Shown here: positions 1 through 6,101 of the stretch, piece after piece | How the letters are laid out: each line of letters starts with the position of its first letter | Position numbering within the stretch: the stretch's first letter is position 1 | Assembly: GCA_030695725.1 (NCBI GenBank) | Contig: JAUYPN010000014.1 | Coordinates: 2,084 to 66,083, forward strand | Length of the DNA stretch: 64,000 nucleotides | Source: Candidatus Omnitrophota bacterium | GTDB taxonomy: Bacteria; Omnitrophota; Gorgyraeia; 2-01-FULL-45-10 | Reading direction: 5' to 3' | Translations under genes and position numbers: made by a program | Notes under the pieces: generated by a model | The model's database searches: none | Seen by the model: the letters and a program-made list of their open reading frames with translations, nothing else | What the model was told of the DNA's origin: nothing

Positions 1-1
1 G

Positions 2-1573
2 GAAGAATTATCAAATATTTATGAAAAAGCTTCCAGAAGAGCCGCAATGTTTATGTCGGCGTCGCGTGGAAATGAGTTTATTGATAGAGCATATAAAACA
101 TTGAATTTATCTGAGGCAAGCGAAGGGGATAGACAAGAATACGTAGATCAAATTGAAAAAACTAATACGCTAAGAGCCACAGTTAGGCAGTTCGTTAGTG
201 AAACAGCAAAAATGAGATTAGAAAAGCCACGCCAAGCTTTACAAGTAAGGGCAACGGATGTGATCGATGTTGGTCAAAAGGAAATGGCTGCAAGTCAATA
301 TTCTCCTCAAAATACTTACCTATGCCGATACTTACAATCTTTTGGGGCAGCAGATTGCGTTGTTTGCACCTTTTATCATCATAATTCTAGAAAAGGGGCG
401 ATGATACATATCGATGGAATGACTAATGTATTGGTTTCTATTCAAAACCTCTTAAATATATTGGATGTCCCCCCAGGTGATCTTGAAATTCGCTTGCTAG
501 GGGGTTATGACGTAGATTTTATCAGTCGTATTTTGGAAACATTTACCATATTAGGGATAAAACCAAAAATTTTAGAGTTAGAAATGAATGCATCTGGTAG
601 CAGTAAAGCCATAATATTAGATCTAATCAATGGTGAAACTTACGATATGATTGGAAGGCCTGTAGCAGCGACTCAAGATGATCTTTCGGTTTTACGCGCA
701 CAATTACCAGGTCCCGCGCATTTAATTCCATTAGGATTAGTTCGCCATGTATTACATGATGAAAAAGCGGCATCTTCATTTGAGGAAAAACGCCTATTCG
801 CAGAAAATACCGATGAAAAGAGATTGCTTACAAAGTCAGCCGAATATCTTGGAAATAGCCCAGTAAACGAACGCATAGACTTATCAGCGATACCCAAAGA
901 AGGATTGACAAAGGAACAGCAGGATGAGCAGCTTGAAAAGAATATGGAAACCCTTGCGCGTCAAATCGCATGGCATAATACCTTTGGTCTAAATATTCGG
1001 TATATACTTGAAAACGATACGCAGGATAAAAGAGCTCACGAAATATTGAAGAATAAAATAATAGAACTTGGCAAGATACCGGGGGTCAATGCTGAAGAAC
1101 TATTATCCCGAATAAATACTCCGCATACTGGAGAGAATGTAATAGAAGTTGTATTGCGAAGCATCGAAAACGTCAAGGCGATGCAACGGGTAGGAGATAG
1201 AGAATTTGTAGTTGCCCTCAAGGACGATTTTACGAAAGAAGGCGTATCTATCCCGAACTACACTGCGGCTTCAGCTATAGGCTTGTCGATAGCCTCGCTA
1301 CGAATAGCTAAAGAAAAAGAAGCCAAACCGGATGAATATAACAGGCTAAAGGATAAGGTCTTTAGAGTGATTAAATCCATATATGAGCGTTACAATATTG
1401 TTACAAAAGAAGACGGTTTTACGCTGGATGACCTAGAATTCATGGTAACCGGATGTCCTGAAAATAAGATATATTACGCGATCCTCTATGCCTTACCACC
1501 TATCGCAAAAGACCTCGTAGAACGAATAGGCAGATATCACGAAACACTGCATTTAATACTACAAGCTGCATAA
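2..1573 (+). CDS. 3' part of a larger ORF running off the left window edge; contains a CheD-like (glutamine deamidase fold) domain, remainder unknown
   Basis: The frame is stop-free from nt 2 (EELSNIYEKASRRAA precedes the ATG at 47), so the ATG is probably internal. Track residues ~95-200 read GAADCVVCTFYHHNSRKGAMIHIDG ... LEIRLLGG ... ILGIKPKILELEMNASGSSKAIILDLINGE. This is colinear with CheD signatures (GSCVAVC..KVGAMAHVMLP, LEAKIxGGA, FGIK...GG..ARSV.YN.ETG). Cys104-to-His121 spacing is 17 residues, as for the CheD catalytic Cys and His. Confidence 0.55.
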   Translation, partial: EELSNIYEKASRRAAMFMSASRGNEFIDRAYKTLNLSEASEGDRQEYVDQIEKTNTLRATVRQFVSETAKMRLEKPRQALQVRATDVIDVGQKEMAASQYSPQNTYLCRYLQSFGAADCVVCTFYHHNSRKGAMIHIDGMTNVLVSIQNLLNILDVPPGDLEIRLLGGYDVDFISRILETFTILGIKPKILELEMNASGSSKAIILDLINGETYDMIGRPVAATQDDLSVLRAQLPGPAHLIPLGLVRHVLHDEKAASSFEEKRLFAENTDEKRLLTKSAEYLGNSPVNERIDLSAIPKEGLTKEQQDEQLEKNMETLARQIAWHNTFGLNIRYILENDTQDKRAHEILKNKIIELGKIPGVNAEELLSRINTPHTGENVIEVVLRSIENVKAMQRVGDREFVVALKDDFTKEGVSIPNYTAASAIGLSIASLRIAKEKEAKPDEYNRLKDKVFRVIKSIYERYNIVTKEDGFTLDDLEFMVTGCPENKIYYAILYALPPIAKDLVERIGRYHETLHLILQAA

Positions 1574-1588
1574 TTTCGAAGAAAACCA

Positions 1589-1620
1589 CAAATGTCCGCC
1601 CTCCCGCACCCGGACATTTG
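1589..1620 (+). terminator. Perfect 10-bp hairpin immediately after the ORF stop (possible terminator, no U-tract)
   Basis: CAAATGTCCG (1589-1598) and CGGACATTTG (1611-1620) are exact reverse complements with a 12-nt loop, 16 nt after the stop at 1573. Confidence 0.4.
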
Positions 1621-1714
1621 CATCTATTGACAGTTAAAAGAGTTACGTATTTTTTACCCTAAAAAGACAGGACATTTCGGACATTCTTGCAGCACAATTG
1701 TCTGTCCGGACATC
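1591..1714. repeat. Cluster of GGACAT(T/C) heptamers (iteron-like)
   Basis: GGACATT at 1612, 1670 and 1679. GGACATC at 1708. Inverted AATGTCC at 1591. GTCCGGAC palindrome at 1705-1712. Confidence 0.4.
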
Positions 1715-2166
1715 GTGTCAACCACCTCTCTGATCTACACAATCTTCCCAATATTCAGCGATATTGCTGTATAATAAGGACGTGTTCAATGTAGAGATAT
1801 AGTTATTGCCTATACCTGCACGGGGAGCCAGTTTACAAATTACAGCGCACCGGAATTCGTCATTGCGCTGTAATGAAATACAGGAAAAGGGAGCTAAGCA
1901 GACGTCCTATTTAGGTACACCCTACTAACCCTTTCAATTCAAAAAACAGCAAAATAAATATTTTCAAAAATAATTGCAAGAATTTAGCCTCTTTTTCCGT
2001 CTTATATAGTACAGGGTATTGTAAGCCTTATATAAAGCGTAAAAGGAGATTTTATTATGCCTACCACAGAAACGGGACAACGCAAGAAGCTGTTGTAACT
2101 GATCGTATTGATGAGTACTTAACAATATATAGATCGGCTGAATCAGATGAGCCAATCGGGTTTAAG

Positions 2167-2373
2167 ATGAAAGATGTGCATGCGTTGATAGAAAAATATG
2201 GCTATGATACGATAGCTGTCCAAGCCGCTGTGACAGGCAAGAAGTTAGTGTTCGTTGTTGCTTTATTATTGTCGGCTTTTAGAGATTTGACACCTTTTAT
2301 AAATAGAACGCAGGGATATACAACGGCTTTAAATGTAGCTCCCAAATCCGATGGGGTGCTAATACCCTGCTAA
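2167..2373 (+). CDS. Small hypothetical protein (68 aa from the ATG; the frame is open further upstream without a canonical start)
   Basis: Track ORF followed by a good intrinsic terminator. The same frame reads on upstream as ...QEAVVTDRIDEYLTIYRSAESDEPIGFK. A 13-codon mini-ORF with a strong AAGGAG RBS (ATG 2057) lies in another frame, so this may be a frameshifted gene. Confidence 0.3.
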   Translation: MKDVHALIEKYGYDTIAVQAAVTGKKLVFVVALLLSAFRDLTPFINRTQGYTTALNVAPKSDGVLIPC

Positions 2374-2400
2374 TATAAAAGAAATGAGATGTGTTGTATA

Positions 2401-2432
2401 AAACCAAACACCTAAAAAGGTTTGGTTTTTTG
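2401..2432 (+). terminator. Rho-independent terminator
   Basis: AAACCAAAC / GTTTGGTTT stem with a 10-nt loop, followed by a T-run (gtttggttttttg). Confidence 0.7.
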
Positions 2433-2613
2433 TTTACTAAAGCACTAAATTAGCCTCTTCAAACAACACTTTTATAATACTTAGGTCAATTTCAAGGTCA
2501 AATCAATATCCCTGTTGCGGAATGCGTCATATACGGGGAGCCAAAATTAGTATAATCCTCTGTAAGTGCAAAAATAAGCGCTACAGCTTCTTATCTATGC
2601 TATAATTATCAAC

Positions 2614-3771
2614 GTGAAAATCTCGCATAATAAAAGATTGCTTTTTATCACGGCTCTTCTTGGCCTGTTTTTATTTTCCTTCTCTTCGCTATCCTTTGGC
2701 GGCGATCAGGCTGAATTTCATCCGGCAAAAGTGAAAGATATTTCCGACAGGAAATATGAACCTGCGGTGATAGAATTGCTGGATAACGCCAAGGAATCGA
2801 TCGTTATCTCCATGTATATAATTCAGGCAGATGAAAAAAGCCCGGTGCAATTACTCATAAAGGATCTGGAAGAGGCGCTTGACAGAGGCGTTTCGGTGGA
2901 TATATATCTGAATACGCGGTTTCAGGAAGGACGGGCTCTTGACGTAGACAAAAACGAGGCCTTTAATACTTTACGGAATAAAGGCGGGAGGATATTTGGC
3001 GTTACCCCTTCCGTTCGTATGCACGACAAGCTCATTATAGTGGATAATCGCTACGTGGTAATAGGAAGCGCCAATTGGAGCATATCGAGCCTGAAGAGTA
3101 ACTATGAAGATGTGACGCTGATAGATTCGCCGGAACTTGCCAAAGACATGTTTATCCGTGTCAGGCGGCATACCCTGAAGGGTGACGAACCGAATAAACC
3201 GGAAAAGGACCGCAAAATAAGAAGGTCTGTAATTTTGAGCGACGATAGCATTGTAGCTTTTGACGACGATCTGTTGACAGATAAAACATTATTCCCGCGC
3301 ATGATGACCGAGCGGGACGCGCGAGCTATGGACACCTATCTTTTGCTTAAAGCATATGCTTTCGAACAGGAGACAGGCGAATATTTTCTCTTTTTGGAGC
3401 AATTGGCTGTGGATCTGGGCATGCCGGCCGACTGGAGCGACTCAGCCTTAAGGCGGCAGGCGATAAAGGCATTGATTAAACTTAAAAACAGGTATAAATT
3501 AATCGATGTCAATTTTAAACACGGGAAAGACGCATGGATAACGCTCAGGGATCTTTCCGCGAACAATTTTGTCTTTAAAGGCAAGTTTTTAAATCCTGAA
3601 TATCTGTCGAAATTCAGCCAGTCAGCTAAATTCGTACTTTTCATAAAGGCATTGCTTGAGAAAGAAGGCGCGACATTTGATTCATTCACGCAGGAAGCGC
3701 TATGCAAGAGATTTAATATCAATAGAAAGACATTTAAAAAAGGCCTTGAGGAAATATTAAGAATTTTTTAG
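2614..3771 (+). CDS. Secreted phospholipase D-like / Nuc-family protein (single HKD motif) with a ~190-aa C-terminal extension of unknown function
   Basis: HDKLIIVDNRYVVIGSANWS matches HxK(x)4D(x)6GSxN. The N-terminus KRLLFITALLGLFLFSFSSLSFG looks like a Sec signal peptide. GTG start. Confidence 0.8.
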   Translation: MKISHNKRLLFITALLGLFLFSFSSLSFGGDQAEFHPAKVKDISDRKYEPAVIELLDNAKESIVISMYIIQADEKSPVQLLIKDLEEALDRGVSVDIYLNTRFQEGRALDVDKNEAFNTLRNKGGRIFGVTPSVRMHDKLIIVDNRYVVIGSANWSISSLKSNYEDVTLIDSPELAKDMFIRVRRHTLKGDEPNKPEKDRKIRRSVILSDDSIVAFDDDLLTDKTLFPRMMTERDARAMDTYLLLKAYAFEQETGEYFLFLEQLAVDLGMPADWSDSALRRQAIKALIKLKNRYKLIDVNFKHGKDAWITLRDLSANNFVFKGKFLNPEYLSKFSQSAKFVLFIKALLEKEGATFDSFTQEALCKRFNINRKTFKKGLEEILRIF

Positions 3772-3804
3772 CCTTTGCAAGGATTGTGTCACCCCCGGTG
3801 GCAC

Positions 3805-3829
3805 AAAAGATATTCTAATCAAGTTAGAA
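3805..3829. repeat. Left copy of a 25-bp direct repeat flanking the DUF1016 cassette
   Basis: AAAAGATATTCTAATCAAGTTAGAA. It contains the inverted repeat TTCTAA-N5-TTAGAA. It matches 5084-5108 with one mismatch. Confidence 0.85.
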
Positions 3830-3972
3830 CGGGTACATAACAATATGAGCTACGATGAGTTACGAAATAAACGTGCCCAGAGATATTTCATCTGTAGCAT
3901 TTAATATCTTAATGAGTTGCGTAAAGCGTCTGCAAACACATATGTGGAAAGCCAAATACAGGAGGTAGTTTT

Positions 3973-5085
3973 GTGAAAAGCAAACCGAAGAAACGGATAG
4001 CACTTTTAAAACAAAATCTTTCAGTAGACAAAACCTCGGGAAAATTATTTAACGATATCCGTTCTATGATAGATGCGATGCGCAATCAGGTGTCCCGCGT
4101 TGTAAACACAGGGCTTACGATGTTGTATTGGCACATTGGCGATAGAATACGAAAAGACATGCTGGGGCAGGAACGCGCGCAATACGGCGAAAAGATTGTT
4201 GCGACGTTGTCGCAACAATTAACAGTCGCATATGGCAAAGGATACACAAGAACGGCATTATCCCGCATGATTAACTTTGCGGAGAAATATCCAAAAAAAG
4301 AGATTGTTGCGATGCTATCGCAACAATTGGGGTGGAGCCACTTTGTTGAGCTTATACCCATAAAAGATAAATTGAAATGTGATTTTTACGCGGAAATGTG
4401 CAGGATAGAGCGATGGAGCGTCGAAACATTACGGAAAAAGATTAGCGGAATGCTTTTTGAGCGTACAGCGCTTTCAAAAAAGCCTAGAAAGCTTGCGGAA
4501 ATTGAAATCAAGGCGCTAAAGAACGAAGATTATATGACGCCTGATATAGCTTTTCGTGATCCATATTTTTTAGATTTCCTTGGATTGAAGGATACCTTCA
4601 GCGAAAGAGATTTAGAATCCGCGATAATAAAAGAGTTAGAGCGTTTTTTAGTTGAAATAGGCACGGATTTTTCTTTCATTGCAAGACAAAAGAGGATAAT
4701 AGTAGACGGGGAAGATTTTTATATTGATTTATTATTTTATCACAGAAGGCTGCGCTGTCTTGTGGCCATAGAATTAAAGATGGATAAATTCCGCCCGCAG
4801 GACAAAGGGCAAATAGAGCTATATTTAAGATGGCTTGAAAAATACGAGATGAGGCCCGGAGAAAATAAGCCAATAGGGCTTGTTCTTTGCGCCGCCAAAA
4901 AACATGAACAAATAGAGCTCTTGGAATTGGACAAAAGCGGAATACGAGTATCTGAATATTGGACGGTACTTCCTCCAAGGAATATTTTTAAGAAAAAACT
5001 GCATGAGATGGTAGAATTAGGAAGAAAATTATACGAGAGCCGAAATAATAGTGGCATAAAATGTGCAAACAAAAGCTTGAACTAA
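3973..5085 (+). CDS. DUF1016 / YhcG-family PD-(D/E)xK nuclease
   Basis: N-terminal helical region (MLYWHIGDRI, GWSHFVELI) and a C-terminal restriction-endonuclease-like core (GEDFYIDLLFYHRRLRCLVAIELK). AGGAGG lies 7 nt upstream of the GTG start. Confidence 0.85.
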   Translation: MKSKPKKRIALLKQNLSVDKTSGKLFNDIRSMIDAMRNQVSRVVNTGLTMLYWHIGDRIRKDMLGQERAQYGEKIVATLSQQLTVAYGKGYTRTALSRMINFAEKYPKKEIVAMLSQQLGWSHFVELIPIKDKLKCDFYAEMCRIERWSVETLRKKISGMLFERTALSKKPRKLAEIEIKALKNEDYMTPDIAFRDPYFLDFLGLKDTFSERDLESAIIKELERFLVEIGTDFSFIARQKRIIVDGEDFYIDLLFYHRRLRCLVAIELKMDKFRPQDKGQIELYLRWLEKYEMRPGENKPIGLVLCAAKKHEQIELLELDKSGIRVSEYWTVLPPRNIFKKKLHEMVELGRKLYESRNNSGIKCANKSLN

Positions 5086-5108
5086 AAGATATTCTAATCA
5101 GGTTAGAA
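5084..5108. repeat. Right copy of the 25-bp direct repeat (overlaps the DUF1016 stop codon)
   Basis: AAAAGATATTCTAATCAGGTTAGAA followed by ttgtttttt. The hairpin plus T-run resembles a weak terminator. Confidence 0.85.
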
Positions 5109-5131
5109 TTGTTTTTTAAGATAGGGTAAAA

Positions 5132-5671
5132 ATGGATGTAAAAATCAATTACAGCAATAAGCGCTCGCGCACGGTCAGCGCGCGCTTGATTGACGGAAAC
5201 TTACTGGTCAATGCGCCCGCAGGCCTGCCGCGCGAGCGCCTCGAGAAGATCATAGATAATTTTAAAGTAAGGTTCCAGCGAAGAAAATTAAAGAAAGAAT
5301 TGAATAAAGAACGGCCGCTCATCGAGATCGCCGCTAAACTTAATAATAAGTATTTCAATGGCAAATTAAAAATTAATTCAGTAGAATACTCTACCGGCCA
5401 GAATAGCATATTTGGATGCTGTAATTGTCGAGACGCGAACATACGCATATCGCACAGGTTAAGCCGGATGCCGGAGTGGGTACGGGACTGTGTCATAATT
5501 CATGAGATGGCGCACCTTATAGAGCCGAATCACGGGCCCGCGTTTTGGAATATTGTTTCCCGCTACGAACTGGCCGAGAGGGCAAAAGGATACCTCATGG
5601 CGGTCGGACTTGATAGCGAGAACGAGCAGGATCTCGAATTTCCGCAGCACAATACTAATCAGAAAACATGA
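5132..5671 (+). CDS. YgjP-like (DUF45, M48-related) metal-dependent hydrolase
   Basis: The zincin motif in VIIHEMAHLIEPNHGPAFW is the typical DUF45 signature HExxHLxExNH..FW. Confidence 0.8.
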   Translation: MDVKINYSNKRSRTVSARLIDGNLLVNAPAGLPRERLEKIIDNFKVRFQRRKLKKELNKERPLIEIAAKLNNKYFNGKLKINSVEYSTGQNSIFGCCNCRDANIRISHRLSRMPEWVRDCVIIHEMAHLIEPNHGPAFWNIVSRYELAERAKGYLMAVGLDSENEQDLEFPQHNTNQKT

Positions 5672-5822
5672 CTGAAGATATAAAAGAACTATTGCAAAAG
5701 ATATGCGCGCGCGAAACAGCATCCTATCCCGTGATAGAGATGGCCATCTCCGCCGCTTACAATAAAAAATGTTGCGGGGGGTCTTTATTTGGAGTAAAAT
5801 AAAACGCAAAAGGAGGTGTTTT

Positions 5823-6101
5823 ATGGCGAAGTTTTTTATGTACGGAAAGTATTCACCGGAAGCGATAAAAGGCATCTCGGCCGAAAGGACGAAGAAGGCT
5901 CTTGATGTGATAGCAGAATCCGGAGGTAAAGTAAATTCAATGTACGCGCTTCTGGGCAAATACGATATCGTGCTGATAGCGGATTTTCCGGCTGTCGCGG
6001 ACGTTATGAAAGCGTCCATTGCGTTAAACAAGCTGACCGGTATAGCTTTTACCAGCTTCCCCGCGATCACTGTCGAGGAATTTGACAAGATCACCGCGTA
6101 A
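5823..6101 (+). CDS. GYD domain protein
   Basis: MAKFFMYGKYSPEAIKGISAERTKKA...GKYDIVLIADFP. AAAGGAGG RBS lies before the ATG at 5823, so the track start at 5769 is rejected. Confidence 0.75.
   Translation: MAKFFMYGKYSPEAIKGISAERTKKALDVIAESGGKVNSMYALLGKYDIVLIADFPAVADVMKASIALNKLTGIAFTSFPAITVEEFDKITA

Follow-up and report, generated by a model that had tools for sequence, protein, structure and literature searches.

The stretch of DNA analyzed here (64,000 nucleotides (nt); hereafter, the window) comes from a contig (JAUYPN010000014.1; C8) in the assembly of a Candidatus Omnitrophota bacterium (GCA_030695725.1), and begins inside an open reading frame (ORF) encoding a large modular protein (P0001). 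A cysteine amidohydrolase domain in this protein belongs to an unnamed family that is a sister to CheD and NTAN1, and is not CheD itself. Together with an adaptor domain on its N-terminal side, this amidase domain forms an optional, removable cassette within a carrier protein. CheD serves bacterial chemotaxis and NTAN1 serves the eukaryotic N-degron pathway; to our knowledge, they are the only well-studied close members of their branch of the Cys-His deamidase fold.

Sequence relationship with CheD and NTAN1

The motif SFGAADCVVC...GAMIHI is present in the target ORF. The original prediction, made from the letters of the window, had aligned this region with CheD by eye and proposed a CheD-like deamidase domain, in which a candidate Cys and His were 17 residues apart as in Thermotoga CheD. 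The codons of both residues were located at this spacing (Table 1), and both the by-eye alignment and the choice of Cys and His were correct. The domain is not a member of the CheD family itself. Pfam CheD (PF03975) gave no match at E ≤ 10 with a 523-amino acid (aa) piece of the protein, with the domain alone, or with the genome in six-frame translation. The sole Pfam match was NTAN1 (PF14736), which scored 22.7 bits with the 523-aa piece and 25.3 bits when only the domain was searched (cut-off, 24); it covered only model positions 5-96 of 270. When the 1217-aa protein was used, NTAN1 was not reported, and only a weak match with PhageMetallopep was obtained. There was no match in NCBIfam. Single-sequence searches of PDB found neither CheD nor NTAN1 (Elp5, DapA, and StayGold, which appeared in these searches, were spurious). 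It took a family profile to reveal the homology of the amidase domain.

An exhaustive HMMER search of 1.84 billion representatives yielded 41 relatives (representative clusters), and the domain, which had been regarded as an orphan, belongs to a family of at least this number of representative clusters. A family alignment of 41 domain sequences was constructed from the target domain, P0003 (see below), and 39 relatives; the envelope of the resulting hidden Markov model (HMM) on P0001 was 762-929. Cys813, His830, Gly862, and Gly905 (P0001 numbering) were invariant in this alignment, while the position six residues before Cys was occupied by Thr in 29 domains and by Ser in the remaining 12. The profile of the 41 domains matched Thermotoga maritima CheD (2F9Z chain C) with an E-value of 5.6e-9 over nearly the full length (profile positions 27-145 and chain residues 10-143), and human NTAN1 (6A0E) with an E-value of 3.6e-8; the match with a YfiH-type protein (7FBG) was weak. 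The catalytic triads of CheD and NTAN1, both of which are CNF1/YfiH-like cysteine hydrolases, consist of Thr21/Cys27/His44 and Ser69/Cys75/His92, respectively (PMC7022378), and the profile alignments paired the putative catalytic Cys of the family with Cys27/Cys75 and the His with His44/His92. The chain of the C75S mutant of NTAN1 scored 9 bits below that of the wild type against the family profile, confirming that the aligned Cys was the catalytic Cys of NTAN1. The blocks aligned by eye were also recovered by HMMER, in which GAGPCV, ALAHi, ariiGG, and iilDletGe were paired with GLGSCV, AMAHV, AKIAGG, and VEYNIETGK, respectively. When the 41 family members were compared with Pfam at E ≤ 1, NTAN1 was matched by 35 and CheD by only eight.

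Structure prediction

An AlphaFold2 model of the cassette (P0001 561-950), predicted using a 24-sequence alignment, had a mean predicted local distance difference test (pLDDT) score of 87.6 and a predicted template modeling (pTM) score of 0.77. In a Foldseek search of PDB, the best match of this model was NTAN1 (E-value of 1.8e-10 over 204 columns; template modeling (TM) score of 0.43), followed by CheD (E-value of 6.2e-7 over 155 columns; TM score of 0.67; root-mean-square deviation of 3.3 Å), in which 154 of the 154 CheD residues were covered. YfiH/DUF152 proteins were third (E-values of 3e-4 to 1e-2; TM scores of 0.2-0.3), and CNF1 came next with an E-value of 0.17. The domain thus has a predicted CNF1/YfiH-like fold and an intact Ser-Cys-His triad, the sequence spacing of which was the same as those in CheD and NTAN1, and the CheD-like fold of the original prediction was retained. 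Within the superfamily, it is placed between CheD and NTAN1. The adaptor domain was also modeled with high confidence as a β-sheet and helices with a long connecting helix, and no solved relative was found by Foldseek in PDB for any part of the cassette outside the amidase domain.

Among predicted viral structures (BFVD), 250-300-aa proteins of giant viruses of eukaryotes (Tupanvirus, Moumouvirus, Fadolivirus, and ChoanoV1) had the CheD/NTAN1 fold, and matched the model (m2f29592fa3b0) with E-values of 4.5e-10 to 1.2e-6. One of them was annotated as "CheD chemotaxis protein", and they represent a further use of this fold outside chemotaxis.

An optional cassette of adaptor and amidase

The full adaptor corresponds to P0001 ~561-765 (~200 aa) and starts upstream of the window at ~C8:1683. 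Distant members of the family had the same layout, in which a motif similar to L-x-L-P-E-V-T was followed by the long helix. Two copies of a linker, corresponding to the first helix of the C-terminal carrier domain, were 81% identical at the DNA level over 43 nt and bracketed a cassette of 416 codons. A comparison between the target gene and a closely related locus (L018, the contig of P0002) gave two blocks with nt identities of 83-84%, which were offset by exactly 1248 nt; L018 lacks these 1248 nt (416 codons), namely, the cassette and one copy of the linker, and possesses a single linker.

The adaptor and amidase are thus an optional, removable cassette because a close relative of the carrier lacks it and because it also occurs on its own as a gene and within proteins unrelated to the carrier. 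One of the latter is P0003 (1563 aa), which has a signal peptide and HEAT-like repeats and contained the cassette at 40-46% identity. The closest stand-alone form, P0005 (h950PNpW; ENA ERZ27297570), was encoded by a 394-aa gene flanked by those for a phage-integrase-type recombinase and an IS21 IstB-like protein, which suggests that it is carried on a mobile element. In Omnitrophota genomes, the cassette was located behind a classical signal peptide (L005), and, in an 840-aa protein (L007 511-3033 in genome G069), between transmembrane segments and another domain. P0006, from an Elusimicrobia metagenome-assembled genome (MAG), had the cassette together with C-terminal transmembrane helices. 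The C-terminal region of the L007 protein contained a GESH motif and resembled Tiki/ChaN/TraB-type hydrolases.

When species genomes were scanned with a five-sequence alignment, only one locus was found, in an Elusimicrobia MAG. Matches with the family profile were found in 20 of the 201 sampled genomes of the phylum and in none of those of the same family. Strong matches in this sample were located in open frames of 430 to 12,257 codons, and weak ones in frames of 164-215 aa, which may be ordinary CheD.

Carrier protein family

P0001 consists, in this order, of an HExxH (zincin-like) region, domain B, the linker, the adaptor (~200 aa), the amidohydrolase (~170 aa), the second linker, and a C-terminal domain (270 aa). 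Approximately 300 residues after the amidase had been regarded as unrecognized sequence. A region of this kind is present; however, it is the conserved C-terminal domain of a carrier family. This domain was found, always at the C-terminus, in at least 15 other large proteins (723-1986 aa; 43-90% identity), one of which was annotated as "Candidatus Omnitrophota bacterium". It has no Pfam family; its AlphaFold2 model (pLDDT, 84; pTM, 0.84) had no significant match with solved structures when Foldseek was run against PDB (best E-value, 0.056). A Bud32-like match of the domain profile with PDB was weak (E-value, 0.0066), contained no significant stretch, and was rejected.

Most proteins of the carrier family begin with a conserved Sec-like leader, KIIAIAMVCLFLVNDIAWA followed by xPD, for which the consensus is K-I-I-A-I-A-M-V-C-L-F-L-V-N-D-I-A-W-A, then x-P-D ... 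T-L-A-R-W. The internal enzymes vary, and include radical S-adenosylmethionine (SAM), GDPD plus methyltransferase, Methyltransf_28, and MTS modules. In P0004, P0049, P0054, and P0057, radical SAM or SAM-dependent methyltransferase modules were located behind the Sec-like leader, which is odd for exported proteins. At another locus (L021), a carrier gene was followed by a gene for an 1824-aa multi-enzyme protein (radical SAM, HAD, NUDT9_N, and epimerase).

The N-terminal region of P0001 (C8:3-1660; residues 1-545) had no Pfam family; P0059 and P0060 both conserve its HExxH motif, HEFMH (155-159). At the N-terminus of P0059, a positively charged tail is followed by a transmembrane helix and a head domain, the latter of which is also present in P0003. 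Domain B, common to P0001 and P0002, contained an HSHP motif reminiscent of JAMM/MPN metalloenzymes.

Gene extent, sequence state, and neighboring genes

The window corresponds to C8:2084-66083, and C8 (80.8 kb) is one of the 80 contigs of the 0.95-Mb assembly. The ORF had been described as open at the window edge, with a protein longer than that shown, and the 2083 upstream bases of the contig bore this out: the frame of P0001 was open up to base 3 of C8. Since the frame reaches the start of the contig, P0001 comprises 1217 aa or more, with its N-terminus still missing; a comparison with the N-terminal homologue P0059 gave an estimate of ~600 missing residues. Residue i of the window frame corresponds to P0001 residue i+694. 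The features of the target gene and its surroundings are summarized in Table 1.

Table 1. Features of the target gene and genes downstream of it (positions in the window, except where C8 is given)
Feature	Position	Strand	Remarks
Target ORF, 3' 1572 nt of a frame of at least 3654 nt (P0001, at least 1217 aa)	2..1573	+	Frame read; low dN/dS versus L018
Adaptor domain, C-terminal part, with long helix into the amidase domain	2..202	+	Common to P0003, P0005, P0006, and P0007
CheD/NTAN1-type cysteine amidohydrolase (CNF1/YfiH-like fold)	203..739	+	Window residues ~68-246; P0001 762-940
Ser113 (P0001 Ser807), 6 before Cys	338..340	+	CheD Thr21, NTAN1 Ser69; codon checked
Cys119 (P0001 Cys813), predicted nucleophile	356..358	+	CheD Cys27, NTAN1 Cys75
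His136 (P0001 His830), predicted general base	407..409	+	CheD His44, NTAN1 His92
Linker repeat, first copy	C8:1634-1676		Upstream of the window; LYAENTDEKKLFTESA, also given as LYAENTDEKKLF
Linker repeat, second copy	799..841	+	DNA self-match; LFAENTDEKRLLTKSA, also given as LFAENTDEKRLL
Carrier C-terminal domain, ~270 aa, α/β plus helices	752..1570	+	Common to other large proteins
Stop codon of the target ORF	1571..1573	+	Frame read
PLD-like protein with signal peptide	2614-3771		Downstream of target gene
DUF1016/YhcG PD-(D/E)xK nuclease	3973-5085		Downstream of target gene
YgjP/SprT-like metallopeptidase	5132-5671		Downstream of target gene
GYD-domain protein	5769-6101		Downstream of target gene

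The ratio of nonsynonymous to synonymous substitution rates (dN/dS) between P0001 and P0002 was 0.07 and 0.03 over the shared segments, indicating that the target gene is functional, with strong purifying selection on these segments. The guanine-plus-cytosine (GC) content of the gene was 0.378, compared with 0.486 for the genome. The first 6 kb of the window (1-6000) also had a low GC content (0.39-0.42, versus 0.47-0.50 in other parts), and the low values of the gene and this region fit a variable or acquired region. It is very unlikely that the domain has decayed into an inactive relic, or that the ORF is a piece of a pseudogene cut off by the contig end: although its ORF is cut by the contig end and its GC content is far below that of the genome, all of the invariant residues of the family are intact, the frame is open for 1217 codons, the dN/dS values are low, and the fold is predicted with confidence.

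No second copy of any part of P0001 was found in the genome by tblastn or by the family HMM over six-frame ORFs, and no Rfam family was found in the window. The carrier-family leader (MFIYRSKYSILYKAIAIAMVCLFLVNDIAWAAPPD...) was found in a single ORF of the assembly, C61:934-83 on the minus strand (273 aa). This ORF ends at a stop codon 80 nt before the end of its contig and does not overlap with the start of C8, by which a simple joining of this ORF to P0001 as the missing N-terminus was ruled out; it may represent a small gene of its own, a carrier gene that is broken, or a start detached from a carrier such as P0001.

Relationship to chemotaxis

The absence of che and methyl-accepting chemotaxis protein (MCP) genes, which had been claimed for the 64 kb, extended to the assembled genome: MCPsignal, CheW, and CheD had no match in the whole assembly, including the window. 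This absence is weak evidence in itself because the assembly is small (0.95 Mb, compared with 1.2-2.1 Mb for most of the sampled genomes of the same family) and because a genome of the same genus has a che cluster. MCPs were found in two of the 21 genomes of the family. Contig C93 in one of them (G206, of the same genus) and contig C66 in the other (G211) contained a compact cluster of MCPs and two to three genes with a CheW domain, one of which was CheA-sized. Neither of the two genomes had a match with the family profile or a CheD-type domain. Since the relatives with che genes lack the domain, and since the domain resides in a modular protein whose contig (80.8 kb) has no che genes, a role in chemotaxis is very unlikely. 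The proposal that a large, 5'-truncated, non-chemotaxis protein houses the domain is supported.

It is hardly credible, and largely refuted, that the domain represents a genuine CheD (the partner of CheC that deamidates glutamines of chemoreceptors) fused into a larger protein with the che genes left unassembled, since the points in its favor (the fold and triad, the small assembly, and the MCP, CheW, and CheA genes of the same-genus genome) are outweighed by the negative result with PF03975, the preference of family members for NTAN1 over CheD, the two che-cluster relatives devoid of any CheD or family domain, the association of the domain with the adaptor in exported or membrane proteins and beside mobile-element genes, and the lack of che genes on C8.

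Proposed function

We consider, with moderate confidence, that P0001 is probably a modular protein in which the amidohydrolase cassette acts on amides of proteins or peptides outside the cytoplasm of the producer, and not in the maturation of chemoreceptors. By analogy with characterized members of the superfamily, Cys813 would attack a carboxamide to form a thioester, the hydrolysis of which would convert Gln or Asn of a target protein or peptide into Glu or Asp; deamidation is the chemistry of CheD, NTAN1, CNF1, and BLF1 (PMC7022378). The adaptor domain may supply target recognition, and the whole protein would be exported or membrane-anchored, acting on the envelope of the producer or on a host or prey cell. 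The Sec-like leaders of the carrier family, the transmembrane helix of P0059, the signal peptides or transmembrane anchors of L005 and L007, and the transmembrane helices of P0006 all support export.

Several points weigh against this interpretation. The substrate and reaction type (deamidase, methylesterase, or other amide/ester hydrolysis) are extrapolated from relatives at 14-18% identity, and export of P0001 is read from its relatives because its own N-terminus is missing. No signal peptide was visible in P0002, the carrier without the cassette, or in P0005, the stand-alone cassette. The carrier family also holds radical SAM and SAM-methyltransferase modules; these SAM-dependent modules would not work outside a cytoplasm, so that the carriers either stay in the producer or must reach the cytoplasm of another cell. 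No secretion or immunity genes adjoined the target gene, or the carrier genes on two other contigs.

A bolder form of this proposal is that the cassette is a plug-in warhead, recombining at the linker helix into phylum-specific, Sec-exported carriers of Omnitrophota, by which radical SAM enzymes, SAM methyltransferases, a phosphodiesterase, and the deamidase would be ferried into host or prey cells. We regard this as speculative and rather improbable. If it is true, the carriers would constitute an undescribed effector-delivery architecture, with the deamidation of prey proteins as one of its weapons.

The substrate may instead be an amide or ester of the cell wall or of a small molecule (e.g. 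D-iso-glutamine or amidated diaminopimelate in stem peptides), in which case the enzyme would be a wall tool of a predatory or epibiotic cell. YfiH, which edits UDP-MurNAc-peptides, belongs to the same superfamily and was among the fold matches, cassette proteins have export signals or anchors, and giant Omnitrophota proteins were linked to cell-wall degradation in a preprint (bioRxiv 10.1101/2023.11.21.568195). However, the matches with YfiH-type proteins were weak and far behind those with NTAN1 and CheD, which act on proteins or peptides, and no wall-binding domain (LysM, SPOR, or PG_binding) was detected in P0001 by Pfam. A wall or small-molecule substrate thus appears improbable.

A bacterial equivalent of NTAN1 (an amidase for N-terminal Asn) might act after new N-termini are produced by the HExxH peptidase-like region, the motif of which lies upstream in P0001 and is kept in P0059 and P0060. 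NTAN1 was the only family in Pfam to match the domain (above the cut-off when the domain alone was used) and the best match in Foldseek, and the first triad residue is Ser in both proteins. On the other hand, the Pfam match was limited to the N-terminal third of the model, the domain is CheD-sized (~170 aa) and directly followed by the linker, and CheD aligned over its full length with a TM score of 0.67, compared with 0.43 for NTAN1; we therefore consider this function to be unlikely. Similarly doubtful is that the amidase acts in cis or on proteins of the producer itself, for example in modifying or maturing the carrier or envelope proteins, and not on another cell. The tethering of the domain inside multi-enzyme and giant proteins and the lack of a delivery system or immunity gene nearby are consistent with such a role, whereas P0002 is a carrier that does without the cassette, and the cassette also occurs without any carrier, either on its own or behind a signal peptide.

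Novelty and implications

The superfamily and its chemistry are already known. The bacterial sister family and its role as a cassette of exported or giant proteins were not mentioned in the papers on Omnitrophota giant proteins that were searched; CheD, NTAN1, and deamidase domains were all absent from these two preprints. As judged from the sequence and the predicted structure, the target gene belongs to a third, unnamed bacterial branch beside CheD and NTAN1, in which the catalytic residues are intact and which is employed as a movable cassette in exported, membrane-anchored, and giant proteins of host-dependent, uncultivated bacteria. If the amidase deamidates proteins of another cell, its chemistry would form a new class among bacterial effectors, distinct from that of the known toxins, and would offer a way to learn how nanobacteria of the Omnitrophota attack or manipulate hosts. 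The carrier family suggests an undescribed modular delivery scheme with a conserved leader, swappable enzymes, and a C-terminal domain without a detectable solved match. The target gene contributes the clean indel of the cassette and the definition of the carrier family.

Comparison with known systems

The target domain resembles CheD (T. maritima 2F9Z chain C; PF03975) in fold, domain size, and the Thr/Ser-Cys-His triad, with Thr/Ser six residues before and His 17 residues after Cys. It differs from CheD in the lack of a PF03975 match, in its location behind an adaptor inside a protein of at least 1217 aa, and in the lack of an MCP/CheC/CheA context; furthermore, its family occurs in exported, membrane-anchored, and giant proteins. 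Human NTAN1 (6A0E; PF14736) was the best fold match and the sole Pfam match, and shares the Ser-Cys-His triad, although only the N-terminal third of its model was matched, and the target is a bacterial modular protein outside the eukaryotic N-degron pathway. In NTAN1, an appended C-terminal region (Ser254, Thr255, and Glu260) recognizes the free N-terminal Asn (PMC7022378). This region has no counterpart in the target: the alignment stops at model position 96, and ~15 residues lie between the end of the amidase domain and the linker with the C-terminal domain.

The glutamine-deamidase toxins CNF1 and BLF1 are precedents for a deamidase as a delivered warhead in a larger multi-domain protein (PMC7022378). 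The target shares with them the superfamily fold, an α-β-β sandwich with a Cys-His pair, and, by analogy, would share the Cys-His chemistry; however, the relationship is very distant, with no sequence similarity, and the target lacks the receptor-binding and translocation domains of these toxins. MARTX-type toxins and polymorphic toxin systems are similar in that enzyme modules are swappable between conserved ends, and, in the present carriers, a repeated linker is the site at which the cassette is acquired or lost. Neither an autoprocessing protease, repeats-in-toxin motifs, an immunity gene, nor dedicated secretion genes were found for the carrier. In polymorphic toxin systems, a variable C-terminal toxin is accompanied by a cognate immunity gene, whereas the target has an internal amidase, a conserved C-terminus, and no immunity gene downstream. 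In contrast to both of these systems, it is the N-terminal Sec-like leader and the C-terminal domain that are conserved in the carrier family, and the variable enzymes are internal.

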